DNA of 64,000 nt. Origin: an uncultured Verrucomicrobiae bacterium (lineage in GTDB: Bacteria; Chlamydiota; Chlamydiia; Chlamydiales; Rhabdochlamydiaceae). Both the position numbers and the translations under genes were made by a program. Of this stretch, positions 1,200-22,359 are shown piece by piece (position 1 is the first letter of the stretch; the number at the start of each line of letters is the position of its first letter). Under the pieces are notes generated by a model. It saw only the letters and a list, made by a program, of their open reading frames with translations. It searched no databases and was not told where the DNA came from. The stretch is from assembly GCA_963718565.1 (NCBI GenBank), contig OY970364.1:1344001-1408000 (forward strand), in the 5' to 3' direction.

Positions 1200-3748
1200 A
1201 TGTTTGATAAATTTACCAATCGTGCCAAACAAGTCATCAAACTGGCTAAAAAAGAAGCGCAGCGACTCAATCACAATTACTTAGGGACAGAACACGTTCT
1301 TCTCGGGCTTGCTTAAACTCGGCCAGGGAATCGCTGTCAATGTCTTGCGCAACTTCAATCTCGATTACGATACGGTACGCGCGGAAATCGAACGGCTGGT
1401 CGGCTTTGGCCCTGAAATTCAAGTCTATGGAGATCCCGCCCTCACAGGAAAAGTTAAAAAAGTTTTTGAATTTGCCAATGAAGAGGCTGCAAACCTCAAT
1501 CATAATTATGTCGGCACAGAACACCTCCTCCTCGCCCTCTTACGGCAGACCGATGGTGTTGCTGCCCAAGTCTTAGAAAATCTCAACGTCAATCTCAAAG
1601 ATGTCCGCAAAGAAGTTCTCAAAGAGCTTGAAACCTTCAATTTGCAACTTCCTCCGATGGGCACAGCGGGGCAGCGCCCCCTGCACCTTCTTCCTCAAAA
1701 GCTCAAGAACAGCGCTGGGATCTCCGGGGATAAAATGCCAGCTCTTAAAGCTTATGGCCACGACCTGACCGAGATTTGCCGTGAAGGAAAACTCGATCCG
1801 GTGATCGGACGAAAAGAAGAAGTGGAACGGCTGATTCTGATCCTCTGCCGCCGACGAAAAAATAACCCTGTCCTCATTGGAGAAGCAGGCGTCGGAAAAA
1901 CAGCCATTGTCGAAGGTCTGGCGCAAGCCATTGTCAAAGGCGAAGTCCCTGATCACCTGACTAAAAAAAAACTGATTTCCCTCGATTTGACATTGATGAT
2001 CGCCGGAACAAAATACCGCGGTCAATTTGAAGAGCGCATCAAAGCGGTCATGGACGAGATCAAGAAGAATGGCAACGTCCTCTTATTCATCGACGAATTC
2101 CATACGATCGTCGGAGCGGGCGCTGCAGAAGGGCGCAATCGATGCCTCCAATATTTTAAAACCCGCTCTTTCCCGCGGAGAAATCCAATGTATCGGAGCA
2201 ACAACCATCGATGAATACCGCAAACACATTGAAAAAGATGCTGCTTTGGAGCGCCGATTCCAAAAGATCCTCGTCGCCCCTCCTTCTGTCGAAGAAACGA
2301 TCGCAATCCTGATGGGCCTTAAACCTAAATATGAAGAGCATCACAAATGCATCTATACCGATGCAGCATTGAAGTCAGCCGTTTATCTTGTCTGATCGCT
2401 ATATCACAGGCCGTTTCCTGCCCGATAAAGCGATCGACCTTCTCGATGAAGCAGGAGCTAAAGCGCGCATTGCGATGATGCATCAGCCTCAAGACATCAC
2501 TAAAATTGAAGCCGAAATCGAAGAGGTGCGCCTCGGCAAAGAAGAGGCGATCGGCAAACAGGAATATGAAAAAGCGGCAAAATTGCGCGATAAAGAGAAA
2601 ACTTTGCGCGAACATCTTCAGCAAATCCGCACCGAATGGGAAAGCAACAAAGACGAACATCAGGTGATCGTCGACGAAGAAGATGTCGCTCAAATCGTCT
2701 CAAAACAAACAGGCATTCCTCTCACACGCCTTACCGAAGGAGAAACGACAAAAGTCCTCAAGATGGAAGAGGTCCTTAAAGAAAATATCATCGGCCAAGA
2801 CGATGCTGTCAGCACTGTCTGCAGAGCGATTCGCCGCAGCCGCGCCGATATCAAAGACCCAAACCGCCCCATCGGCGCCTTCCTTTTCCTAGGCCCAACA
2901 GGCGTTGGAAAAACGCTTCTGGCAAAACAGCTCGCGATCAATATGTTTGGCGGTGAAGATGCTCTCATCCAAGTCGACATGTCCGAATACATGGAGAAAT
3001 TCGCCATCAGCCGCATGACAGGATCGCCTCCCGGATATGTCGGACATGAAGAAGGCGGACAGCTCACCGAACAAGTGCGCCAGCGCCCTTATTGCGTCGT
3101 TCTCTTTGATGAGATTGAAAAGGCGCATCCCGATGTCATGAACCTCCTCTTGCAAATCTTAGAAGAAGGACGCCTCACCGACTCTTTTGGCCGCAAGATC
3201 GATTTCCGCAATACGATCATCATCATGACCTCCAATCTTGGCGCGGACCTGATCCGCCGTTCAACAGAGGTCGGTTTTGGAGTCCAAGAAGGAATGCTCG
3301 ATTTCAAATCGATGCAGGAAAAGATCGAAGGCTCTGTCAAAAAAGCTTTCAAGCCTGAATTCATCAACCGCTTAGATGGCATTGTGATCTTCAAACCGCT
3401 CGACCGCACTCCATCTGTTCCAAGTCATCGACCTCGAAGTGAAAAAAGTCAGAGTCGCGGCTTGCGCGTAAAAAAATTGGGCTGACTCTCGACGACAAAG
3501 CAAAAGATTTTCTCGTCACCAAGGGCTTTCAGCCAGAAATGGGCGCCCGGCCCTTGCGTCGCGTCATCGAACAATATCTCGAAGATCCGCTTGCAGAAAA
3601 ACTTTTGCTCAACCCAGGCAAAGGTGGCAACTGGAATGTTTCTGTAGACGGCGATAAACTTGTTTTCATCGAACAGGAACCTCCTCCAGAGGAGGCAAAA
3701 AACCACCTCGCCCTCTCAGGGCCGCCTGAGCGTAAAAAAGCACGTTAA
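1200..3748 (+). CDS. clpC: ATP-dependent Clp protease ATP-binding subunit ClpC, interrupted by several frameshifts (about 1310, 2135, 2390, 3410-3480)
   Basis: Starts [20 protein letters not shown]. Two Clp-N repeats, Walker A GEAGVGKT and [11 protein letters not shown] coiled coil, and C-terminal [11 protein letters not shown] are spread over successive ORFs in different frames. Confidence 0.93.
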
Positions 3749-3749
3749 T

Positions 3750-3771
3750 GAGGGAATTGCAAAACTCCCTC
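3750..3771. terminator. Short hairpin (family B repeat end) between convergent clpC and glgB
   Basis: gagggaattgcaaaactccctc pairs gaggga with tccctc. The same core occurs at 12986-13007 and, reversed, at 36155-36176. Confidence 0.5.
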
Positions 3772-6452
3772 TAATTCCATCTTTCTTCAAAAGCAACTAG
3801 CGATAAAGGTGGCAAAGCAAAACGGAAATGTGTCGGATCCCCGGAGCCGTCTCTTCTGAGAGTCGCCCAATTGTTTCTAAACTGTCCTGTCCCACCATAT
3901 TGAGTTCCATCGGTATTGAAGATCTCTTTTGCTCCTTTAATCCAATGGAGATCGGGATCTTCGTGCAAAGAGGCTAAAGGAAAATCGTATTCTGGATGGC
4001 CCGTAGGAGAAAAATTAAAGAACAGGGCGATGCGCTGTCCTTCATAGTCAAAGCGATGAATCCCAATGACGTTGTTAGAGGCACAATGAGAGATGAGCTG
4101 ATAACCTCGACTCCCCTGTTTCCAAAAAGCTGGCCGCGATCGATACAAACGATTCAGATCCCCGACACATTCTTGCAAACCGCGATGAAAAGAGGCTTCC
4201 GCGTGCCCATCTAATAGGTTCCATTCTACTGCTCCTTCTTGAGTCTGCAATCGTTCGTTCCAGGGCCATCTTTGGCTGATTTCATCACCCATATGGATCC
4301 CATGACCGCATCCGGGAGACAACAAGTTCCACGCATGAAAAAGACGCATGTCAGCAAATTTTTTCCAGGAATCCAATGTGGGAATGGATCCATAAATCGT
4401 GGAATAGTGATAAAGAGCGCCTGAAGCCGCATCATCGTGCGAATGAGCGATTAACCAATGTTCGCCTTGTCCTATTTCATGGATATTAGCGAGAAGTTTT
4501 CCATAATGATGCTCATCCCAGCTGCGCTGATCATAAGGCGTCCGGAAATAATTGCGCATGCGGCATTGCATAGGAATGCCCAGTTTGACATCAAATCCTA
4601 GTCCGTCTTCAAAAGTCGGTTTAGTGACATTCGGGAAGCCACTTGTTTCTTCTGCAATCATCAGAATGCCAGGGTACTGTTCATGCACGAGATGATTAAG
4701 CTCCTTAAGAAAGTGGATCGCAGCCCATTGTTTAACTCCAGATCGGTCAACCATCGGACCAACAGCATCAACTCGCAAACCATCGATGTGCATCTGTTCA
4801 ATCCAATACAAAGCACTAGCGAGTAAAAGACGGCGAGTCTCTTCTTTATTAAAGTCAAAAAAGATCGTTCCCCAATAAGAGGGCTCCGAACCGAATAGAG
4901 GTGTGCCATCATAATCATGGAGGGATTGAGAACGATCGCCGTTGTGCTCATGTTTGTAATGGGCAGGGATCCAATCGATGATCACCCCAATCCCGTGCTG
5001 ATGGCAGAGATCGACGAGAAATTTGAAATCATCGCTATTGCCAAGTCTGCGATTGGGAGAAAAAAAGTGATCCGTCTGGTATCCCCAAGAACAGTCGTTT
5101 TTGTTATCGAGCACGCCATAAATCTGAACATGGGTGAAAGGGATCTTTTTTTGATATTCGACAATGGCCCACGCAAGTTGACGAAAAGACAAAGGCTTGC
5201 CATTCTCTTTTTTCCATGAATCGGCATGCATCTCATAAATCGAAAGAGGTTTTTTGCAAGGATCGCTGCGCGATCGTTCGATGACCCAGCCTTGATCGTT
5301 CCAGGGAAATGCTTCCATATCTGTGACAACCGATTCCACAGCAGATCCTGTGTCCGCCACGGAAAAACTGAACGGATCGGTACGATAGCTCCAACAACCC
5401 TGACAATCCTCGATAAGAAAACGATACGTCCTGCCAGGATGGGCATGATGCGTAAACGTTTCAAAGAGCCCAAAATTCTTTCGCTGCATTGGAATGCAAT
5501 GTTCTTCTTTTCCATAAGCCGTCAGGATTAATTGGACTTGGCGTGCGTGAGGAGCAAAGACTTGAAATTGTGTTCCATCGAGTTTGGGATGAGCCCCTCG
5601 CCACTGATAAAGATGCTTCGGATCTGAACGCATCTTTTCGCTTTTTAGAGCCGTACCTTCAATGACACCGATCCATTCGCGAACTCTTCCAGAAACCTTG
5701 CTAAGCACCGCCTGCCACTGTTCTCGATTGAGCATTCTATACAGTACAGTCAATCGATCGAAATCCTCGATCTCTCTCATCTTTTCTAACCCATCCAGCA
5801 GTGCGGTTTGTTCTCGCAATTGCTGCTCATGAGTGTGAATGTCGTTTAAGGAGGTTTTATCAGAGACGCTTTGTATACCGCGCTCCGTCAGGTATAACAG
5901 TTGAACCGTATTCTTCTGCTTTTCTAAAACAGAGCACATTTCATAGTGATGAATCATCTGTTCGCAAAGCGTCTTTCCCTTAAGATGAAGAAGCGGCATC
6001 TGAATTTCAGAAAGAAGGGAAAGTCGTCCTTTAAGCCTTTTTTCACCCAATTTGTCGCCAAAAGTAGCCCCATGATCAACCCAGACCGACCAATAGAATA
6101 AACACTGAACATCTGCGGGCAAATCATCAAAAGCCGATCTGACATCGCCACTTGCCGCGTCTTCTTTCAATAGAGTGAGGAGATGGAAAAGCTTACCCTG
6201 GGTTAACCCCAGGGCCTCTACTGTCTTATTCGGCTGATGTGGACGTAAAACCCTGTTGACAGCCCGGTTCAATCGATCCTCGCTGATAGACCGAACTAAC
6301 CAAGCCCGTTCAGGAAAGACTTTCTCATTGGTCAAAAAATCAGGAACTTTGCGCTCGATATGAGATAAGCGGTCTAAATGTGGGTCCTGTCTATCAAAAC
6401 CCCAATATCGCCGCCATTCATGAACATGGTCGATACATCTTGCTTGAATCAT
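3771..6452 (-). CDS. glgB: 1,4-alpha-glucan branching enzyme (GH13) with about 275-aa N-terminal extension
   Basis: CBM48-like GAHP..GTQFQVFAPHA, SIYEMH..SW, SWGYQ, DWIPAH, catalytic GLRVDAV, IAEET and SHDD. Confidence 0.9.
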   Translation of the reverse strand: MIQARCIDHVHEWRRYWGFDRQDPHLDRLSHIERKVPDFLTNEKVFPERAWLVRSISEDRLNRAVNRVLRPHQPNKTVEALGLTQGKLFHLLTLLKEDAASGDVRSAFDDLPADVQCLFYWSVWVDHGATFGDKLGEKRLKGRLSLLSEIQMPLLHLKGKTLCEQMIHHYEMCSVLEKQKNTVQLLYLTERGIQSVSDKTSLNDIHTHEQQLREQTALLDGLEKMREIEDFDRLTVLYRMLNREQWQAVLSKVSGRVREWIGVIEGTALKSEKMRSDPKHLYQWRGAHPKLDGTQFQVFAPHARQVQLILTAYGKEEHCIPMQRKNFGLFETFTHHAHPGRTYRFLIEDCQGCWSYRTDPFSFSVADTGSAVESVVTDMEAFPWNDQGWVIERSRSDPCKKPLSIYEMHADSWKKENGKPLSFRQLAWAIVEYQKKIPFTHVQIYGVLDNKNDCSWGYQTDHFFSPNRRLGNSDDFKFLVDLCHQHGIGVIIDWIPAHYKHEHNGDRSQSLHDYDGTPLFGSEPSYWGTIFFDFNKEETRRLLLASALYWIEQMHIDGLRVDAVGPMVDRSGVKQWAAIHFLKELNHLVHEQYPGILMIAEETSGFPNVTKPTFEDGLGFDVKLGIPMQCRMRNYFRTPYDQRSWDEHHYGKLLANIHEIGQGEHWLIAHSHDDAASGALYHYSTIYGSIPTLDSWKKFADMRLFHAWNLLSPGCGHGIHMGDEISQRWPWNERLQTQEGAVEWNLLDGHAEASFHRGLQECVGDLNRLYRSRPAFWKQGSRGYQLISHCASNNVIGIHRFDYEGQRIALFFNFSPTGHPEYDFPLASLHEDPDLHWIKGAKEIFNTDGTQYGGTGQFRNNWATLRRDGSGDPTHFRFALPPLSLVAFEERWN

Positions 6453-13447: not shown

Positions 13448-13552
13448 GGTACGTCCTTAAAAACTCATGGCAAAAGTTGAAGACCATTTTGATCCATGCC
13501 AAACTTACCACTTATCGATCTTGATTGGGCACGGATCGAAATGGTCTTCAAC
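13448..13552. repeat. Palindromic element family C, second copy (inverted, one arm truncated)
   Basis: Reverse complement of about 8388-8492. Its end supplies the TGA stop of the WD40 ORF. Confidence 0.88.
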
Positions 13553-13988
13553 CTCCTGTCTTCAGATCCCAGATCTTGATTGTACCGTCAAGATCGCACG
13601 AAAAGAGTTGCCCGCCAGCACTTGCAAGAGAGATAACCCCGTTTGTATGCCCTAGAAGAGTCGCTATGCATTTTCCTGTTTCTGGATCCCAGACCTTGAT
13701 TGTATGGTCGAAAGAGCTAGACAAGAGTTCCTCGCCGACAGCAGTAAGAAATAAAATCCCCTCCTGATGACCTTTAAGAGGATCATACGAAGGGTACTCT
13801 TTTCTATTAAGATTGAAATAAAAAGTTCTGTAGGCGTCCTGAACATTCTCAATGGTGCTCGAGTCACTATCTGGAAAACGCCTGTCAAAGAGTGCGCGCC
13901 AAATACAGGGACTGTTTTTATCGTTTAGTAACTGATACCAGTCTTTGCAGACTAGGGAGATTTTTCCAATATCATTGGCAAATAAACA
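13548..13988 (-). pseudogene. F-box/WD40-repeat eukaryotic-like protein fragment, 5'-truncated by IS256
   Basis: F-box tail ISLVCKDWYQLLND...IWRALFDRRFP, then WD40 repeats LKGH...SSSFDHTIKVWD and LLGH...DGTIKIWD. The ORF-track N-terminus is IS sequence. Confidence 0.8.
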
Positions 13989-15475
13989 GGTAGTGTAACA
14001 TTGTTTCTGTAAATTCAATTTTTCAAGAAAGTGTTTTGATAATTGAAAAAAAAGTTTGAGATCACATTCTCTTAAGTTTAGACAAACAAACAAAAGAAGA
14101 GGTTATGATCTCAAACAGCACATATGCCCCTGTAATCAACGCATTAGTGGAAGAACTCGGACAACAAGGCTTACACGGCCTCAGCGAACTCTTGAGCAGG
14201 CTCTTCAATGAATTAATGAAGACCGCACGAGAGCAGGTTCTTCAAGCTGGTCCATATGAGCGGACAGAGGCTAGAAAAGGTTATGCTAATGGTTTTAAAG
14301 ATAAAACGGTACAGACTCGTTTTGGAAAATTAGAACTCCAGGTTCCACAAACTCGAGAGATTGCATTCTACCCACAGTGCTTAGAGAAGGGAGAGCGATC
14401 AGAAAGGGCATTAAAATTGGCAATTGCAGAAATGTATGTTCAGGGTGTTTCAACGCGGCGAATAGCTCCAATTGCAAAAGAGCTGTGCGGCTTTGATTTG
14501 AGTTCAACCCAAGTTTCTCGGGTTGCAATGATTCTCGATGAGGAGCTTGAAAAATTCCGCAGGAGAAATTTAGGTCACATCGTTTATCTTTATCTCGATG
14601 CCGATTATCAAAAGGTGAGACACGATGGACACGTCAGAGACATTGCAGTACTAAAAGCTGTTGGAGTGAACAAAGATGGATTTCGAGAAGTGCTTGGCAT
14701 TTCATGCAGTTTATCTGAGGCCGAAGTGCATTGGAGGACATTCCTGGAAGACTTACTCTCTCGAGGATTAAGAGGAGTAGAAATGGTGATTAGCGATGAT
14801 CACTCTGGGCTAAAAGCTGCACTAAGGGCAGTGCTTCCATCGGTTCCTTGGCAGCGCTGTCTTTTTCATCTTGCTCAAAACGCTCAAAGCTATGTCCCAA
14901 ACACGGCAATGCGAGGAGAAATTGCACAAGCGGTACGAGATGTTTATCAAGCCTTGAATCAACAAGAGGCTGAAAAACGAGTTAAGGAAACAGTGCAAAG
15001 ATATGAAAAAAGAGCGCCCAAATTTTGCAATTGGTTTGAAATCAATGCAATTGAGGCAATGACATTTTATCATCGGCCAAGAAGGCACTGGAAACAGATA
15101 AGGACTGTTAATATTGTTGAAAGGCTTAATGGAGAGATTAAGCGGCGAACAAGAGTAGCAAGATTATTTCCCAATGAAGCGTCTTGTGAAAGATTGGTCA
15201 CTGCCGTGGTATCTGAGATACACGATGAATGGATAAGCGGAAAGAGGTATTTGACGTTAGAATAAAATATTGAGGAAAACAACGCTAACACCGATGGAAC
15301 ACTTTTTGTTTAGGGGTGAATTATCTGGCATAAAAAAGTGTCAGATTCGAAAAATTTTTCCTCAAAAGCAAAGTAAAAAGCCGAAGCGTCTCTGACGCGA
15401 GAGGCCGTTTTTATAGTAAGAAATTGACCTAAGTGAAGAAGATTTCAGATTTTACAGAAAAATTGTTGCTTGATC
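13989..15475 (+). mobile_element. IS256-family insertion sequence
   Basis: Imperfect terminal IRs ggtagtgtaacattgtttctgtaaa / tttacagaaaaattgttgcttgatc enclose the transposase. No target-site duplication is visible. Confidence 0.85.
14105..15265 (+). CDS. IS256-family DDE transposase
   Basis: EMYVQGVSTRRI, YLYLDA, VISDDHSGL, WQRCLFH, ERLNGEIKRRTRV..FPN. Confidence 0.96.
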   Translation: MISNSTYAPVINALVEELGQQGLHGLSELLSRLFNELMKTAREQVLQAGPYERTEARKGYANGFKDKTVQTRFGKLELQVPQTREIAFYPQCLEKGERSERALKLAIAEMYVQGVSTRRIAPIAKELCGFDLSSTQVSRVAMILDEELEKFRRRNLGHIVYLYLDADYQKVRHDGHVRDIAVLKAVGVNKDGFREVLGISCSLSEAEVHWRTFLEDLLSRGLRGVEMVISDDHSGLKAALRAVLPSVPWQRCLFHLAQNAQSYVPNTAMRGEIAQAVRDVYQALNQQEAEKRVKETVQRYEKRAPKFCNWFEINAIEAMTFYHRPRRHWKQIRTVNIVERLNGEIKRRTRVARLFPNEASCERLVTAVVSEIHDEWISGKRYLTLE

Positions 15476-15660
15476 AGCTGGGCTAGAGGCCAAGAGAAAA
15501 CTGCTTGGTTCGATCTTTCCAGCAAAATTGACTTTTCAAGATGGAAAATATCGAACCAATGGTCTGAATCCAGCGCTCGCAACTATCCTACAGAAAACCA
15601 AGAACTTACAAAAAGAAAAAACGGGAGACATCGTCATTTCTGAAAATGTCTCCGGGGATG
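15476..15660 (+). pseudogene. C-terminal remnant of a probable large serine recombinase reading into the antisense of tRNA-Arg
   Basis: LEAKRKLLGSIFPAKLTFQDGKYRTNGLNPALATIL...VHQTGLEPV resembles the C-terminal tails of tRNA-targeting recombinase-family proteins. The upstream part is replaced by IS256. Confidence 0.55.
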
Positions 15661-15734
15661 TGCACCAAACAGGACTCGAACCTGTAACCACCCGGTTCGA
15701 AGCCGGGTACTCTATCCGATTGAGCTATCTGTGC
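15661..15734 (-). tRNA. tRNA-Arg(TCG), second copy with an acceptor-stem mismatch (possible pseudo-tRNA)
   Basis: Identical to 13256-13329 except two acceptor-stem changes (GCACAGA/TTGGTGC), giving an A-G mismatch and a G-U pair. Confidence 0.85.
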
Positions 15735-15831: not shown

Positions 15832-16509
15832 ATGCAGGAAGAAAAGACAGAAGGCATTGTTTTACGCTCTCAAGACTATAAGGAGCGCCACCGCATCATT
15901 ACTCTATTTTCCCCACATGGATTGATCAGCCTGATCGTCAAAAATATCTCACGCAAAAATGCCCGCCTTCTCGCTCTCACTACTCCTTTTAGCCATGGGG
16001 AATACATTTTCCGCCAAAATCGATCAGACCTTTTCCGTTTTTGGGACGGCACCGTTTTCAATGATCATCTCGATCTGCGTCAACATTTAAAATCCCTGCA
16101 AGCAGCTGGAGCCTTAGCTAACGCCATTCTTACCTCTCAAATGATGGGAAAGCCTGCGCCGGCACTGTTTGCTCTTTATAAATCTTATCACAAACAAATC
16201 TGCAGCTTCGAGGATCCTGCCCCGCTGCTTGCGAGTTTCTATCTTAAGCTTCTAAAACACGAGGGGCTTCTCTCACTGTCTCCTCATTGCGCTAGATGTG
16301 AGAAAAACGCAGCGCAGGCCCTTGATAGTGGGGAAAGCTTTTGTTCTCAACATGCGGCGCAAGATTCCATTGTATTTTCTTCTTCCGAATGGAATATTCT
16401 TTTTGCTCTCCATGGTGTTCAACAATTCTCAACGCTGCGCAATCTGACCTTTCCTTTTCTTTTTTTAAAGAAGGTCCAAGCACTTTTTCTCTCCAGGATC
16501 ACCCTCTAG
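15832..16509 (+). CDS. recO: DNA repair protein RecO
   Basis: EGIVLRSQDYKE..RIITLFS..G, FYLKLLKHEG, Zn finger CARC...FCSQH. Confidence 0.93.
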   Translation: MQEEKTEGIVLRSQDYKERHRIITLFSPHGLISLIVKNISRKNARLLALTTPFSHGEYIFRQNRSDLFRFWDGTVFNDHLDLRQHLKSLQAAGALANAILTSQMMGKPAPALFALYKSYHKQICSFEDPAPLLASFYLKLLKHEGLLSLSPHCARCEKNAAQALDSGESFCSQHAAQDSIVFSSSEWNILFALHGVQQFSTLRNLTFPFLFLKKVQALFLSRITL

Positions 16510-16643
16510 TGTAAGGCTTTTGTTCCAGTGGACATTGGGACATGGATCAGCTTATTTAAATCATCAGGGACACAACACAATGAGTGCCCTTAAAAGCAGC
16601 TTGCCCTCACTACTGCAGTCCTTCCTTGGTGATTACACTAAAG
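16504..16643 (-). ncRNA. Candidate structured RNA (rod-like, 6S-RNA-like fold)
   Basis: On the minus strand: 11-bp closing stem CTTTAGTGTAA/TTACACTAGAG, nested CCA/TGG, GGAC/GTCC, AGCT/AGCT, and apical GGGCAC/GTGTCC. G-U pairs favour the minus strand. Confidence 0.4.
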
Positions 16644-16769
16644 CAAATGGATCAGACAAAAAACCCACATTTTTTTTCATCTTTTAACCTGAAGTTGGGT
16701 TAATATTATGAGCAGGGGCATGTAACAGAATCCATTGAACTTATTCAAACCTGATTATATATTATCAGA

Positions 16770-17192
16770 ATGAACAAGTTTTTAAGCATTCAGGAAGCAG
16801 CAAAATGTTTGGGAGTTTCTCCACAAACACTCCGCCGATGGGAAAGACAAAAGAAAATCGTTCCCTGTCATCGCATACAGGGCGGCCAACGCCGCTATAG
16901 TCTCACTCAGTTACAGCCATTTAATTGCGGAGATAAAACCTCTGATCGTCTAACTGTTGCCTACGCAAGAGTTTCGAGTCATGATCAAAAAGAAGATTTA
17001 CAACGACAAGTCCATATGTTAGAAATTTACTGCTTTGCAAAAGGATGGGTGTTTTCGGTAACCAAAGACCTCGGTTCCGGGATGAACTATAATAAACGTG
17101 GGCTAAAACAACTGCTTGAGCAAAATGGTTCAAGAAGCCATAAGAACAAACAGCTTTTGGCCAACCTTCAAAATGCGGTCGCCAATGTCTAA
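16770..17192 (+). pseudogene. tnpA: IS607 TnpA serine recombinase with in-frame internal deletion
   Basis: MerR-like HTH (LSIQEAAKCLGVSPQTLRRWE), YARVSSHDQKEDL and DLGSGMN are present. GLKQLLEQ is fused almost directly to GSRSHKN, so the DRL.RFG...FSARLY segment is missing. Confidence 0.85.
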
Positions 17193-18651
17193 AGAGAATC
17201 TGGTTCTTAAGCTGGGAATTGAAGCAGACCCTCAAACAATTTCTGAGCTCGATGGGCAATCGCGGATCTGTAATTGGCTTTATAATCATCTGCTAGAAAA
17301 AAGCCTGGAACTCAAGCGGGAATTTATCCATTCCGGCAACCCGGAGGCATCAAAGACCCTCTATACAGAAAGAGGACTCAGAAATGAACTTCCAAAACTC
17401 AAGGAAGAGCACCCCTTTCTAAAAGTCGTCCACTCTTCTCCATTAAAAAATACCGCTTTGAGACTTAGTGAAGCAATCCGGGTTCATCAAAAATCAAAAA
17501 AAGGAAAACGGAAAGGCAAACAGATGGGTTGGCCCAAATTTCGGGCCTGGAAACGGGACTGGTTTTCTCTTTTTTACGATGAACCAGAAAAAGGTTTCAA
17601 GATTCACGGCAAAGCCTTGTTCCTCTCCCTTGGAATGGGCCAGGACCGCAAGCGCCGCTTCCTCACTCTCGAATTACCCGAAGCACATCTCCTCAAAGAC
17701 AAAACCCCACGCAATTTGCGCATTATCTCCGAACTGGGAACCTACTATGCCATTTTTACCATTCAGAAAGAACTCCCCATCCGAAAACCCATTTCTAAAA
17801 TCCTCGCACTCGATCCCAATCACAAAAATCTCGCCTATGGTGTTGACACAAGTGGAACAGCCATTGAGATTGCATCTCCTCACTGGCTCAAAACTTACGA
17901 TAAACGCCTGGACGAACTAAAAAGTAAAAGAGACCGCTGTGATAAAAAATCTAAAAAATTCCATGTTCTGGATGAAAAAGGCAATCCCACAGGAAAAGAA
18001 TTCCATCTTCCTTCCAGGCAATGGAGAAAATACGATCATGCCCTAAAAAGCGCACTGCGTAAACGCCGAGAACAGACCAAGACGTTTATGTTTACAAGCG
18101 CACATCGCCTTTTCCGAAATTACGACTGCATTGGAATCGGAGACTATACACCAAATGGCGAAGGCATTACTAAACCAATGCGGCGAGCGATGAATAACCG
18201 ATCCTTGATTGGACGTTGGAAAAACACCCTCTCCTGGGTAGCTCGAAAATCGGGAAAAACCTTTATTGAATTCGACGAGAAAGGGACAACCCGGACCTGT
18301 AGCCACTGCCTGCGGATTGAAGAGCGGGGAATCCCTGTCTCATTGAGACAATGGCAATGTCCACAGTGCAAGACCGTTCACATTCGCGACGAGAATGCCG
18401 CAATTAACGGCTTGAGAAAGATCTTGCGAGATCTTTCAGCAAAAAATGAAGGAGGATATCCTTCAATAGTGTCTGGCTCAGACCTCGCTTTTATCCAAAA
18501 GCGATGGGCCTGGTGTGTTTTGCCTAATGGTGTACATGTGACACCGTGGGGGCAAGACAGCAAAGCAATTTGCAGCATCAGGAAATTAAACCGAGGGCAT
18601 GATAGCCCTCGATCAAAAGTTGATAATTTGGTTATATATGATCAGGTTTGA
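17185..18651 (+). CDS. tnpB: TnpB RNA-guided endonuclease with rearranged (Fanzor-like) RuvC site
   Basis: CNWLYN, GWPKFR, RuvC-I ALDPN, RuvC-II IGIGDY, FDEKGTTRTCSHC...WQCPQC, RuvC-III RDENAAING. Confidence 0.92.
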   Translation: MSKENLVLKLGIEADPQTISELDGQSRICNWLYNHLLEKSLELKREFIHSGNPEASKTLYTERGLRNELPKLKEEHPFLKVVHSSPLKNTALRLSEAIRVHQKSKKGKRKGKQMGWPKFRAWKRDWFSLFYDEPEKGFKIHGKALFLSLGMGQDRKRRFLTLELPEAHLLKDKTPRNLRIISELGTYYAIFTIQKELPIRKPISKILALDPNHKNLAYGVDTSGTAIEIASPHWLKTYDKRLDELKSKRDRCDKKSKKFHVLDEKGNPTGKEFHLPSRQWRKYDHALKSALRKRREQTKTFMFTSAHRLFRNYDCIGIGDYTPNGEGITKPMRRAMNNRSLIGRWKNTLSWVARKSGKTFIEFDEKGTTRTCSHCLRIEERGIPVSLRQWQCPQCKTVHIRDENAAINGLRKILRDLSAKNEGGYPSIVSGSDLAFIQKRWAWCVLPNGVHVTPWGQDSKAICSIRKLNRGHDSPRSKVDNLVIYDQV

Positions 18652-20549
18652 TCAAGTTTTGAAGAGCGGAAGATCTTTTTAATTTTCTGATTAGCCAGGC
18701 GCACTCCGCGAGTGTGGGCCCCTTTGATCGGGATTTGTTTCAGCTCGTAGATCAGTTTTTTCGCTTTTTGGCGAGCGGATGATGGCGCAAAGTGAAGTTC
18801 CACAGCGGGATCGGGATGTGCCGAAAAGTGTAGCAGTTCGCTCTTTTCATCGAGGTATCTGTACACTTTTTGAAGGATAAACTTATCGACGACAAAGCGC
18901 TTACCCCAAACGTGGCCAGTCGCGCAGTGTTTGTAGACTATGCTAATCACCGTCTTTTTATCGGCAATCATGACCCAGGCGACATTTTCGACATATTGCT
19001 TTTCTGGGATATTGATCACAGAATAAGTTCCATCCTTGCAAAAGATGAGTAGCTTGTCAAAGTTGGTGCATTCCAGTTGAACAGATCCTGGAATCTTGGT
19101 TCCGACAAAGCCGCTTTTGGGATCAAAACCCACTTTGATCTGTTTGGTCTCGATGGCGCGGCGGTCGATCTCTTCGATCGCTTTAATCCGAGTTTTTCGA
19201 GGGAAATCTTTTCCAAACTTCTCAATGAGGTTCTTGAGATAGCGGATCGTGTACTTCTTGACATTCTTAAGATCTTTTTCCACTTTGACTAAGCTCTCTT
19301 TGAGAAGGGCGATTTCTTCCTGGTTTTTATCGATGTCAAAGCGGGAAATGCGGCGGATGGGGATTTGAAGCAGCTTTTCTCGGTCTTCAATGGTTGGCTT
19401 GCGTAAAAGCTTTTTCATATAAGGCTTGAAGGCCGCCTCGAGGGTCTGATGAATGCCTTCCAGGGTTTTGATCGTCTCGATTTTCTTATAGATACGCTTT
19501 TCAATAAAAATGCGCTCCAACGTTTGATAAAAGATCTTCTCAAGCAGGCGATCGCGTTCAATCTCGAGCTCGCGCTTGAGGAATTCCATCAGTTTTTCTG
19601 CATTATAGCTCAGAATTTCATGGACATCGGTCTCCCAAGGAAGCCCCTCTTTGATCACGATGATTTGCGAGTTGAGTGCCACTTCACATTCTGTAAAGCC
19701 ATAAAGAGCATCTAAGATCTCTTCAGCATATTGGCCGCGTGGGAGTTTGATCTCGATTTCGATGTCTTTGGCAGTATAATCGTTGATCGCCTCGATTTTG
19801 ATTTTCCCTTTTTTGGCCGCTTCATCGATGGAGCGAATGAGACTTTCTGTCGTCGTGCCGTAGCAGATTTCGCTGATGACAAGCGTTTTTGGGTCCTTGA
19901 TTTCGATTTTTGCTCGGAGTTTGATCTTGCCTCGGCCTTTGTCGTACTGGCTTTTGTCCATGATCCCGCCCGTGGGGAAATCGGGATAGATCTTAAACGA
20001 TTTTCCTTCAAGATAAGCGATTTCCGCTTCGAGAAGTTCTGTGAAATTATGCGGCAAGATGTGCGTCGACATCCCCACCGCAATCCCATCTGCTCCTTGC
20101 ATGAGCAAGAGAGGAATTTTTGCAGGCAGTGTCACTGGCTCTTGATTTCTGCCATCGTAGGAAGGGATTTTTTCTGTGAGATCGGGATTAAACATTGTCT
20201 CGCGTGCAAGCGGCGAGAGGCGCGTTTCGATATAACGGGCAGCCGCTGAAGGGTCTCCTGTAAAGATATTCCCGAAGTTTCCCTGTCTGTCTAGAAGATA
20301 GCCTTTGTTTGCCAAGTTGACGAGAGCCTCGTAGATCGGGGCATCTCCATGCGGATGGAATTGCATCGTCTGGCCGACAATGTTGGCAACTTTGTGGAGT
20401 TTTTCATCGCTTTGCCTCCACAGTGTTTCCAAAATCCGCCTTTGCACAGGTTTGAGCCCATCGACGACATTCGGAATCGCCCGATCGAGAATGACATAGG
20501 AAGCATATTGGATGAAGTGATCCTTCATCTGTTGTTTAAGATCATCCAT
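18642..20549 (-). CDS. parC: DNA topoisomerase IV subunit A (chlamydial gyrA-2 type)
   Basis: DRAIPNVVDGLKPVQRRIL, FHPHGDAPIY, AAARYIETRL, PDFPTGG. Confidence 0.93.
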   Translation of the reverse strand: MDDLKQQMKDHFIQYASYVILDRAIPNVVDGLKPVQRRILETLWRQSDEKLHKVANIVGQTMQFHPHGDAPIYEALVNLANKGYLLDRQGNFGNIFTGDPSAAARYIETRLSPLARETMFNPDLTEKIPSYDGRNQEPVTLPAKIPLLLMQGADGIAVGMSTHILPHNFTELLEAEIAYLEGKSFKIYPDFPTGGIMDKSQYDKGRGKIKLRAKIEIKDPKTLVISEICYGTTTESLIRSIDEAAKKGKIKIEAINDYTAKDIEIEIKLPRGQYAEEILDALYGFTECEVALNSQIIVIKEGLPWETDVHEILSYNAEKLMEFLKRELEIERDRLLEKIFYQTLERIFIEKRIYKKIETIKTLEGIHQTLEAAFKPYMKKLLRKPTIEDREKLLQIPIRRISRFDIDKNQEEIALLKESLVKVEKDLKNVKKYTIRYLKNLIEKFGKDFPRKTRIKAIEEIDRRAIETKQIKVGFDPKSGFVGTKIPGSVQLECTNFDKLLIFCKDGTYSVINIPEKQYVENVAWVMIADKKTVISIVYKHCATGHVWGKRFVVDKFILQKVYRYLDEKSELLHFSAHPDPAVELHFAPSSARQKAKKLIYELKQIPIKGAHTRGVRLANQKIKKIFRSSKLDQT

Positions 20550-22359
20550 TTTCGTTCACAAGGTTATGCATGATAAAGGCTTTGCGCTCAGGAGTATTTT
20601 TCCCCATATAAAATTCAAGAGTTGGCTTGATATCGGAAAGGTTTTGAATCATCACTGGCAATAGTCGAATATCTTTCGGCGATAAACTGTTTAAACTCGT
20701 TTGGAGAGATCTCTCCAAGCCCTTTAAAACGCGTGATTTCAATGCCTCTTTTTCAGCTCGCGCAGCGCGTCTTCTTTTTCTTCTTCCGAATAGCAATAGA
20801 TTGTTTTTTCTTTATTCCTCACTTTAAAAAGGGGGGTTTCCAGAATATGAAGATGGCCGTTTAAGACAAGCCCTTCAAAATAGGTGAGAAAAGAAAGTGA
20901 TCAGAAGATTGCGGATATGCATCCCGTCGACATCGGCATCGGTGGCAAGGATCACTTTGTTGATAGCGGAGATTGGTGAGATCCTCTTCGATATTCAAGG
21001 CTGACATGAGATTGTACATCTCTTCATTTTTATAGAGCTGATCGAGCTTCATGCCATGGACATTCAGCGGTTTGCCGCGAAGAGAAAAGACAGCCTGTGT
21101 CAGTGGATCGCGCGTCATGACGATCGATGCTGAGGCAGATTCCCCTTCTGTGAGGAAGATCATCGACTCTTCGCCCTTCTTTTGTCCCATCGCCGAAATG
21201 GAATTTGGAATCGCGCAGTTTTGGGATTTTGAATGAGATTTTTTTCTGTTTTTCTTTCGCCTCTTTTTTAACCGCGGCGAGCTCTTTCCGCAGCTTTTCA
21301 TTAAACAGAGATCCGCTCGATAATCTTGCTTGCCATCCTCGGGAAATTTATAGAGAAGGTTTTGAACAGCATCTTTAACTTCTTGGACAATGGGCGCGCG
21401 GATCTCATTATTGGACAATTTATTTTTCGTTTGAGATTCGAAGACAGGGTCTTTGACTTTGATGAGGATCGCCCCGACGATCCCTTCGCGCACGTCGACG
21501 CCTTGGAAATTTTTCTTCGCATAACTCATTGATCCCTTTCAATATTCCTTCTCGGAATGCAGAAAGGTGGGTCCCGCCATCTTGCGTATATTGGCCGTTG
21601 ACAAAGGAAAAATAGCGTCTCGCCATAACTTGAGGAATGCAGAAAGGCAAATTCGACATGTTTTCCGCGCTAATGCAGCGGTTCATACAGGCGATCTTCT
21701 TTGACCTCGTCATTTAAAAGATCGAGCAATCCATTTTCCGATCGGATCGTCTTGGCCATTGAATAGAAGAGCAAGCCCTGTATTGAGATAGGCATAATGC
21801 CAGAGGCGCTTGAGGATCGTCTCTTTTTGGAAGGAAAACTTTTTAAAGATGTGGGATCGGGAATGAATTCGATCCAAGTGCCATCCGCTTCTTTTGTTTT
21901 TCCTTTCTTCTTTTCTTTAAGGACACCTTTCGACAAAGCGCGCTTCGACAAATTCCCCTTCGCGGAAGCTTTTCACGACAAAGTGAGAAGAAAGAGCGTT
22001 AACCGCCTTTGTACCCACCCCATTGAGGCCCACAGAAAACTGAAAAACATCATCATTGTATTTGGCGCCTGTGTTGATCTGACTCACGCATTCGATAACT
22101 TTGCCGAGAGGAATCCCGCGTCCCCAGTCTCGCACTGACACTTTTGAGGTTTTCTCATCGAGCTCGATCGCGATCTTTGGCCCTGATGCATGATGAATTC
22201 ATCGACGGAGTTGTCGATCACTTCTTTGAGCATGACATAGATTCCATCATCGGGATGGGAACCATCGCCAAGACGGCCAATGTACATTCCTGGACGAAGC
22301 CGAATGTGAGCCAATGCATCTAAAGATAAAACTGTACTTTCATCGTATTTTTTAGCCAT
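20542..22359 (-). CDS. parE: DNA topoisomerase IV subunit B (chlamydial gyrB-2 type), with multiple frameshifts
   Basis: [68 protein letters not shown] and MGKNTPERK lie in several different frames. Confidence 0.9.

Follow-up and report, generated by a model that had tools for sequence, protein, structure and literature searches.

TnpB proteins with a relocated RuvC-II glutamate are known from insertion sequences (IS) of the IS607 family. The type has been named 'Ealt' (Yoon et al., 2023; e.g. ISXfa1), 'RIIr' (Altae-Tran et al., 2023) and 'TnpB2' (Jiang et al., 2023). Its elements have ends with a GG core and a serine recombinase, TnpA, as the partner of TnpB; TnpB itself has a Gly at the canonical Glu position and a conserved Glu six residues before the zinc finger (ZF), and a structured 3' guide RNA reaches the right end. 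Here we report on a well-preserved element of this already described type, an IS607 TnpB with alternative glutamate, from an uncultured bacterium (Verrucomicrobiae by name, Rhabdochlamydiaceae by GTDB lineage). It is located at 16715-18669 of a window of 64,000 nucleotides (assembly GCA_963718565.1, contig OY970364.1, positions 1,344,001 to 1,408,000), to which positions refer unless the genome is mentioned. The element shares all of the above properties, the 3' RNA as a predicted scaffold. Two features set it apart: at RuvC-I the catalytic Asp and the two following residues read D-P-N, unlike the D-Phi-G of ISXfa1-type proteins or D-P-G, and every copy of this genome with an intact TnpB has an internal deletion in its TnpA partner.

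In the mimivirus Fanzor2 (ApmFNuc/L79) D324A and E467A are catalytically dead mutants. For an archaeal TnpB of the same rearranged type DNA cleavage has been shown, rearranged TnpBs and Fanzors are described as cutting DNA, and the relocated Glu is also present in an IS605 TnpB (Jiang et al., 2023, PMC10530073). As described by Yoon et al. (2023), the fingerprint of Fanzors and pro-Fanzors is D-P-G plus the alternative Glu, found in <1% of homologues, and pro-Fanzors are mostly cyanobacterial IS607 TnpBs with that fingerprint. The same report describes for IS607 a right-end RNA of ~150 nt which runs past the element boundary, a fixed right-flanking nucleotide being part of the scaffold. In a Clostridium IS607 IStron TnpA integrates at GG, the target and target-adjacent motif (TAM) is TGGG and the scaffold ends in UCGG; there TnpB cuts the donor joint and lowers element loss (bioRxiv 10.1101/2023.11.20.567912). 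Altae-Tran et al. list Chlamydiae among the TnpB-poor phyla. For the present locus an original prediction had proposed an uninterrupted IS607 TnpB with a Fanzor-like RuvC site and, from that site, kinship with Fanzors.

An intact TnpB with a rearranged RuvC active site

The gene, the residues in question and their codons are:

17185-18651 (+), tnpB, 488 amino acids, one terminal stop and no internal stops in the translation
17812-17814 (+), codon of D210, the RuvC-I Asp of ALDPN; invariant in a 43-sequence alignment, opposite D324 of mimivirus Fanzor2
18139-18141 (+), codon of G319, the canonical RuvC-II Glu position; invariant Gly, opposite the ISDra2 Glu
18277-18279 (+), codon of E365, the alternative RuvC-II Glu; invariant, opposite E467 of mimivirus Fanzor2
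18298-18369 (+), C4 zinc finger with C372, C375, C392 and C395
18388-18390 (+), codon of D402, the RuvC-III Asp of RDENAA; kept in at least 90% of the 43-sequence alignment

The window protein is a TnpB. The translation bore out the proposed uninterrupted reading frame, and the identity of the product was confirmed by Pfam (PF07282, Cas12f1-like_TNB, 55.6 bits against a cut-off of 26.3, E 5.8e-15) and by fold. The ATG at 17185 is backed by relatives, which match residues 1-488; a longer, TTG-initiated frame exists from 17116. This ATG overlaps the stop of the upstream open reading frame (ORF; stop at 17190-17192) by 8 nt. An AlphaFold2 (AF2) model built on the 43-sequence alignment had a predicted local distance difference test score (pLDDT) of 84.6 and a predicted template modelling (TM) score, pTM, of 0.74; the final 32 residues were below a pLDDT of 50. 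The top Foldseek match was the ISDra2 TnpB ternary complex 8h1j (TM 0.80 target-normalised, 0.61 query-normalised, E 3.2e-18), and the mimivirus Fanzor2 complex 9b0l gave TM values of 0.57 and 0.59. ISDra2 TnpB (8h1j/8exa) was also the best natural sequence match in the PDB and has the same WED/REC/RuvC/ZF layout. It differs from the window protein by its canonical RuvC-II Glu and by D-V-G at RuvC-I. ISDra2 moves by single-stranded DNA transposition with a tyrosine (Y1) TnpA.

All motifs on which the active-site assignment was based, ALDPN, IGIGDY, FDEKGTTRTCSHC and RDENAA, were found in the 488-residue translation. The family alignment comprised 43 sequences with identities to the query down to 25%. 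D210, G319, E365 and C372 were invariant, and N212, C375, C392, C395, D402 and N404 were retained in at least 90%. The Glu stands exactly six residues ahead of the first CxxC (E365-KGTTRT-C372), again in 43/43 sequences, and it was present in all 29 representatives with a matching zinc-finger pattern. A phmmer search against PDB sequences placed 'ydcIGIGDYtp' opposite 'yeiIGTEHLkp' of ISDra2 TnpB, so that the canonical Glu falls on the second Gly, G319. It also placed 'tfiefDEkgTTRTCSHC' opposite 'tevvnvNEylTTKTCSNC' of L79/Fanzor2, with E365 opposite chain residue E467. With the family profile 'iiaiDpNhkN' came to lie opposite 'nscgiDpGlrd' of Fanzor2 (D210 opposite D324) and 'liaiGdYtp' opposite 'kiciGklnv', Gly opposite Gly. 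The loss of the canonical Glu to Gly and its relocation to just before the zinc finger, as originally proposed, thus both held. In the AF2 model D210 ends strand 206-211, G319 ends strand 315-319, E365 directly follows strand 359-363 and D402 opens helix 401-420. Because D210, G319, E365 and C372 are invariant down to 25% identity, we take the motifs to be the true catalytic positions and not a chance pattern. D210, E365 and D402 are the candidate catalytic triad.

A TnpA-deleted derivative has spread in the genome

The element and its 5' part are laid out as follows:

16715-18669 (+), whole IS607-family element, 1955 bp; in an own-genome blastn of 16400-19000 identity ends here
16715-16769 (+), left end (LE), in relatives conserved ~58 nt upstream of the tnpA ATG
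16770-17192 (+), internally deleted tnpA, 140 amino acids, with a MerR-type helix-turn-helix and Resolvase positions 2-58 of 145

In the 2.28-Mb genome six further copies aligned end to end (16713/16715-18669) with 99.3-99.6% identity (blastn). One more aligned over 16715-18638 and resumed ~1.1 kb on, i.e. it is interrupted 31 bp short of the right end. The genome therewith holds seven complete copies and an interrupted one, 99.3-100% identical, and the tnpB frame is open in all eight. The element begins with GGGGC(A/T)TGTAACAG and ends with TTTTGAAGAGCGG; all copies open with GGGGC(T/A)TGTAAC and close with GAAGAGCGG, and the flanks beyond are unrelated. GG is present at both ends of all complete copies; the outer GG on the left may stem from the target. 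Left junctions read GGGG in 14 of 15 cases in the own genome, the remaining one, a left-end remnant, having AGGG; in close relatives they were GGGG (12/13) or TGGG (1/13). In 25 of 29 related loci a TnpA homologue directly precedes tnpB (19 of the 25 near full length). Together with the GG at both ends this agrees with the IS607 setting of the original prediction, which had missed that the TnpA of this element is internally deleted.

The 140-residue TnpA retains its MerR domain (2.3e-13, Pfam). A split blastn alignment delimited a 198-bp in-frame deletion, equivalent to 66 amino acids of the catalytic domain, with its junction between 17124 and 17125. A Resolvase search of the genome returned ten truncated loci (positions 2-58), the window copy and nine others, and two loci with Resolvase positions 2-137 in a 211-codon frame which encodes a 206-residue TnpA; two unrelated larger recombinases were also found. 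The 206- and 140-residue proteins differ by one in-frame segment of 66 amino acids. Every TnpB-intact copy has this deletion and, reciprocally, both copies with a full-length tnpA have a broken tnpB. In one an internal deletion joins approximately residue 6 to approximately residue 427, the other is truncated after about residue 180. Because ten loci carry the truncated form and both full forms have a broken tnpB, we can conclude that one deletion derivative without most of the recombinase catalytic domain reached at least ten sites, and that the autonomous form persists only without TnpB. With about 66 amino acids missing from the catalytic domain, the window copy would not be expected to transpose autonomously by its own TnpA.

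Three internally deleted derivatives that keep both ends were noticed in the genome at 679225-680792, 1190630-1191481 and 1864645-1865128; in window-equivalent positions their deletions are 17831-18217, 17366-18465 and 16840-18160, respectively. The third form was seen in one DNA run as well, as a contig joint.

A conserved structured RNA at the right end

Two further features were assigned at the right end:

18476-18669 (+), conserved structured RNA, presumed omegaRNA/right-element RNA (reRNA) scaffold, ending ...GAGCGG and covering the last ~58 tnpB codons
18670-18689 (+), putative guide segment; the flank past the right end is here the 3' end of a parC-like gene

The sequences of the copies diverge exactly after GCGG. 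As a single sequence, the last 270 nt of the element folded with a z of -7.13 against shuffles, and no Rfam family matched at E≤1 over 16000-19500. The final 240 nt of the window element were aligned with those of 16 related loci (17 sequences, TnpB identity 48-87%). The RNAalifold consensus had 58 pairs, 32 of them with compensatory changes, and 93.4% of cells were paired. None of 500 column shuffles reached any of the observed measures. When partners were slid by 1-3 columns, double-change pairs fell to 6-18 and pairing to 42-49%. An invariant long-range pairing connects GCUC (18476-18479) with the GAGC three bases from the 3' end; an additional hairpin at 18449-18465 may belong to the scaffold RNA. 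Of 29 related loci 18 have the right-end terminus TTTGRAGAGCGG, including loci with a protein identity as low as 48%. The guide length of ~16-20 nt was assumed from other TnpBs (ISXfa1 and CboIStron work).

In the window and in close relatives the tnpB frame ends 18 nt from the right end, in distant relatives it ends 67-96 nt earlier. In view of these earlier stops and of the low-confidence C-terminal tail in the model, the tail fits a read-through over RNA-constrained sequence.

Parts of 18200-18900 were present in twenty public runs; soil and freshwater metagenomes contain most of this region. Five of the twenty, with small shares, are RNA libraries. In three RNA libraries the contigs comprised a 171-nt exact match to 18346-18516 and a 172-nt piece (18479-18650) with six differences. 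Among these assembled contigs, which cover parts of the element, none from an RNA library bridges the right end.

A family outside the published search patterns

A word-indexed search with the TnpB gave 840 clusters at E≤1e-5, and the named top matches were proteins of Chlamydiae metagenome-assembled genomes (MAGs). A scan of species-representative genomes returned 37 loci. Most are titled Chlamydiae, Chlamydiales or Waddliaceae, others Verrucomicrobiae, Acidobacteriota, Anaerolineae, Haloplasmataceae, Bacillaceae, Syntrophomonadaceae and Desulfovibrionaceae, MAG bin labels being possibly unreliable. The nearest relatives sit in bacterial MAGs, and the window locus itself is part of a 2.28-Mb single-contig prokaryote genome. 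D-P-N at RuvC-I was found in 28 of 29 related genome loci and 73 of 80 related metagenome loci. An exhaustive search of representatives gave 1849 clusters at E≤1e-3; with the threshold at E≤1e-30 there were 116. For 59 representatives with a length of 380 residues or more the motif was DPN in 28, DQN in six, DLN in three, DFN in two and DMN, DPG and DLG in one each; 13 had no pattern call.

Some single members may be mentioned here. An unannotated D-P-N member with 41% identity is located on Cupriavidus necator plasmid p1 (1.19 Mb, almost without annotation) at 486848-488173; its motifs are YIDPNQKN, VGIGDYVP and LDETGTTRTCHVC. Two of the 80 metagenome loci read APG and AVG at the RuvC-I Asp and may be nuclease-dead derivatives. 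One row of the tree described below (P0179) has an Ala in the RuvC-III Asp column.

The tree was calculated from 74 hand-picked rows, which include no Fanzor or pro-Fanzor sequence (IQ-TREE quick mode, LG+G4, Shimodaira-Hasegawa-like approximate likelihood ratio test, SH-aLRT), and was rooted on seven viral TnpBs with the canonical Glu. It had one alternative-Glu clade (SH-aLRT 96). Within a 63-row clade (99) all D-x-N rows were united with a monophyletic group of ten metagenome D-P-G proteins (100), and the window TnpB was inside a 14-row D-P-N group (89). The quick tree puts D-P-G inside D-x-N. Holding the 53 D-x-N rows together costs 29.8 log-likelihood units with p = 0.12 in the approximately unbiased (AU) test; because this test does not reject D-x-N as one clade, the nesting of D-P-G is not established. 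For a member of the D-P-G subclade (P0135) the single named homologue was a hypothetical protein of a Bdellovibrionia MAG. Its contig is without tnpA; the nearest named relatives of a neighbouring FtsH, ~50% identical to it, are proteins of MAGs labelled Limnocylindrales/Chloroflexota, Methylomirabilota and Acidimicrobiales. No cyanobacterial name was among these FtsH matches, which are too weak for a host assignment.

Both search patterns of Yoon et al. (2023) demand a Gly at the third position, and because of this D-P-N proteins escape both. The present family does not carry the D-P-G of the Fanzor fingerprint; at least 90% of the 43 sequences retain N212. With mimivirus Fanzor2 (L79, 9b0l) it has in common D-P at RuvC-I, the Gly at the canonical Glu position, a Glu in the E365/E467 column, the TTKTCxxC zinc-finger context and the IS607 setting. 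Differences are the D-P-G of L79, its ~130-residue N-terminal extension (in the profile alignment the first aligned chain residue is 133), only ~15% identity in the structural alignment, and a viral or eukaryotic host as opposed to the bacterial chromosome here. In addition, the family profile scored ISDra2 TnpB higher than Fanzor2 L79 (119 vs 95.6 bits), as did the profile of the D-P-G subclade (50.6 vs 40.9 bits), and the family profile had no Fanzor1 match at E≤0.01. Structural matches to giant-virus proteins in BFVD had identities of 13-16%, no better than those to phage TnpBs (13-20% overall). Neither profile score nor fold brings the family closer to Fanzor2 than to the canonical ISDra2 TnpB. 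The pro-Fanzors of Yoon et al. (2023) are likewise prokaryotic and IS607-associated and share the Pro that follows the RuvC-I Asp as well as the alternative Glu; they are, however, D-P-G proteins described as cyanobacterial, whereas the D-P-N loci are titled Chlamydiae and several other phyla. Four cyanobacterial plasmid TnpBs had a hydrophobic residue and a Gly after the RuvC-I Asp; the alternative Glu was present in none of the three with the zinc-finger pattern.

A search with the window TnpB found no relative in IMG/VR viral contigs. A scan of viral contigs with one family alignment (A2) gave 80 loci, none with D-P at RuvC-I (two read DLN). At the alternative position most had no Glu; it is present in six (L057, L097, L109, L110, L112 and L116). 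A scan with another alignment (A4) gave one D-P-N locus, a 477-residue D-P-N/alternative-Glu TnpB without a recombinase upstream, which is encoded at 2938-4371 (+) of a 47.8-kb AT-rich IMG/VR contig (L130; motifs CSIDPNHKN, IMIGDYTP and IIDEKNTTSDCSQC). The TnpBs of L097 and L116 are on IMG/VR contigs of 437 and 179 kb, i.e. of giant-virus or jumbo-phage size; they read D-L-G at RuvC-I, have a Gly in place of the canonical Glu and carry the alternative Glu (VDEKNTTRTCHSC). The ESM Atlas held only generic TnpB clusters. Full-text literature searches that paired Fanzor with Chlamydi*, or Chlamydiae with both IS607 and TnpB, yielded only a census paper and an unrelated review.

The original prediction was right, then, on the type of active site and on the IS607 context. 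The combination of D-P, Glu-to-Gly and relocated Glu does describe this site, yet as a mark of Fanzor kinship it overreaches: the relocated Glu occurs in an IS605 TnpB as well, and the family is D-P-N, not D-P-G. A special closeness to Fanzors is not favoured by the ISDra2 and L79 scores, by the missing Fanzor1 match or by the viral contigs, in which no close relative was found.

Proposed mechanism and alternatives

The explanation that we favour and consider likely is a recently amplified, non-autonomous IS607-family IS with an intact alternative-Glu TnpB, an RNA-guided endonuclease, as its cargo. TnpB is probably an active homing nuclease. Transcription would run from the left end across the deleted tnpA and across tnpB and go on past the right end. 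TnpB would bind the 3' segment of ~200 nt (about 18476-18669, ending GCGG) as its omegaRNA scaffold, and the next ~16-20 nt of flank would act as guide. The complex, using the triad D210, E365 and D402, would cut guide-matched DNA that adjoins a 5' TAM. A suitable target would exist only at the 'empty' donor joint after excision, and cleavage would then provoke recombinational re-copying of the element, i.e. homing or retention, a logic taken from Zedaveinyte et al. (bioRxiv 10.1101/2023.11.20.567912). The predicted TAM is NGGG, probably GGGG, which is the left junction motif and one base away from the scaffold end GCGG. It is proposed because the position at which GGGG and GCGG differ is also the one that distinguishes TGGG from UCGG in the Clostridium botulinum IStron, with which the element also shares the GG core; unlike in the IStron no group I intron was detected here (no Rfam match). 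Excision and new insertion at GG would require a serine recombinase. Because the TnpB-keeping copies have lost 66 amino acids of its catalytic domain, their mobilisation would have to occur in trans, the likeliest helper being the full-length TnpA of the two tnpB-defective copies. The intact gene, the conserved motifs, the fold, the ends and copy number of the element, the tnpA deletion and the RNA covariation are observations; nuclease activity, extent of the guide, TAM, homing and trans-mobilisation are what we infer from them.

Several points weigh against this explanation. The genome contains many element fragments, at least ten truncated or internally deleted remnants and solo ends in 2.28 Mb, and so many decayed copies mean ongoing loss. 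The long copies are >99% identical, and their intactness could reflect recency instead of selection. PF01385 (OrfB_IS605), a precomputed annotation of many close relatives, reached 25.5 bits and is under its Pfam cut-off of 30.5. The TAM prediction is weak, as the outer GG may belong to the target or to the element, and the bases upstream of GGGG showed no preference in the 15 left junctions of the own genome or in the 13 of related loci. Finally, the RNA-library contigs can derive from DNA and carry neither strand nor end information; they are no proof of transcription.

Another reading is an IS that burst recently and is now decaying, in which TnpB is intact only from the youth of the copies and is no longer useful to element or host. 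Copies at 99.3-100% identity had little time for decay, tnpA is deleted in all those with an intact TnpB, the remnants and solo ends are numerous, and a neighbouring gyrB/parE-like gene split across frames suggests a decay-tolerant genome, or assembly errors. On the other hand, the eight open tnpB frames, the loss of tnpB from both copies with a full tnpA and the presence of the tnpA-deleted form at ten or more loci would be expected if TnpB favours persistence. Further, catalytic residues and RNA structure are clearly constrained across genomes. We consider such a decaying remnant unlikely. Still harder to accept is a nuclease-dead, domesticated TnpB, an RNA-guided regulator of the TldR kind. 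The absent canonical RuvC-II Glu (G319) could by itself be read as inactivation; this is offset by the invariant Glu at a position proven catalytic in Fanzor2, by the conserved Asp residues of RuvC-I and RuvC-III, and by a gene which is multi-copy within mobile-element ends and not a fixed single-copy host gene. This reading is highly improbable.

A different question is that of ancestry. The D-P-N/alternative-Glu IS607 family, present in many Chlamydiae-labelled genomes, could be the sister of Fanzor2 among prokaryotes, or its source, i.e. a non-cyanobacterial 'pro-Fanzor'. This is compatible with the favoured explanation as to mechanism and differs from it only on descent. The D-P-N family and its sister or nested D-P-G subclade would then be the prokaryotic neighbourhood in which the Fanzor2 of amoeba giant viruses arose, with amoeba-associated bacteria as the conduit, and would have been missed because pattern searches demand a Gly after D-P. 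If true, the 'pro-Fanzor' state would not be confined to cyanobacteria. The idea draws on the features shared with mimivirus Fanzor2 (a Pro next to the RuvC-I Asp, a Gly in place of the canonical Glu, 'E-x2-TT(K/R)TC-x2-C'), the IS607 TnpA partner, the ten-member D-P-G/alternative-Glu clade (SH-aLRT 100) which joins the D-x-N family at 99, the third-position Gly of the published regular expressions, which would miss D-P-N, and the one D-P-N member on a 47.8-kb IMG/VR contig. Against it stand both profile comparisons, in which ISDra2 TnpB is preferred, the absence of a Fanzor1 match to the family profile, and Foldseek identities of 13-20% to giant-virus and phage TnpB-like proteins without special closeness to the mimivirus protein. 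The window TnpB is also without a relative in viral contigs, the tree covers no Fanzors or cyanobacterial pro-Fanzors, and the nesting of D-P-G in D-x-N is unsecured (AU p = 0.12). Taken together, this makes a Fanzor2 origin from the family rather improbable.

Genomic surroundings

The right end of the element overlaps a convergent gene:

18642-20549 (-), parC/gyrA-like gene (DNA_topoisoIV family, PF00521, 3.3e-105), its 3' end overlapping the right end of the element

The last eight codons and the stop of this ORF are element sequence; without the element the frame would go on for 12 codons into the left flank (16480-16715). Orthologues in two genomes of the same genus have the parC/gyrA-like gene without the element. 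These two sites were considered for reading the TAM from an empty site and were rejected, the flanks being too diverged (70-75% identity, with a different upstream gene).

A gyrB/parE-like gene at 20861-22141 (-) appears split over several overlapping ORFs in different frames, two fragments of which match PF00204 (DNA_gyraseB). It is either a pseudogene or the product of assembly frameshift errors. On the other side an intact transposase of the Mutator/IS256 family (PF00872, 1e-107) is encoded at 14105-15265 (+), 1.5 kb upstream of the IS607 element, and thus two unrelated mobile elements are present in the stretch. Between them are a tRNA-Arg(TCG) at 15660-15734 (-) and a RecO-like gene at 15832-16509 (+). 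An ORF with a WD40 repeat (PF00400, 1.2e-14) is located at 13548-14093 (-), with no F-box by Pfam. Eukaryote-like repeat proteins are typical of amoeba symbionts.

Implications

If active, the window TnpB would be a compact RNA-guided nuclease (488 amino acids) with a Fanzor-type active site, a defined predicted scaffold and dozens of natural variants. Such an active site has been reported to be without collateral cleavage in the proteins described by Jiang et al. (2023, PMC10530073). A large alternative-Glu clade is missed by the two published patterns, D-P-G and D-{P}-G, and this is relevant to claims that among TnpBs only those of cyanobacteria have Fanzor-like active sites. Of most interest are, in our view, the D-P-N motif outside the published patterns and the reciprocal TnpA-only and TnpB-only copies in one genome. 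The latter constitute a natural experiment, in which a TnpA-deleted, TnpB-carrying derivative outnumbers its autonomous parent, which has lost TnpB. This pattern of derivative and parent fits a TnpB that promotes the persistence of the element.

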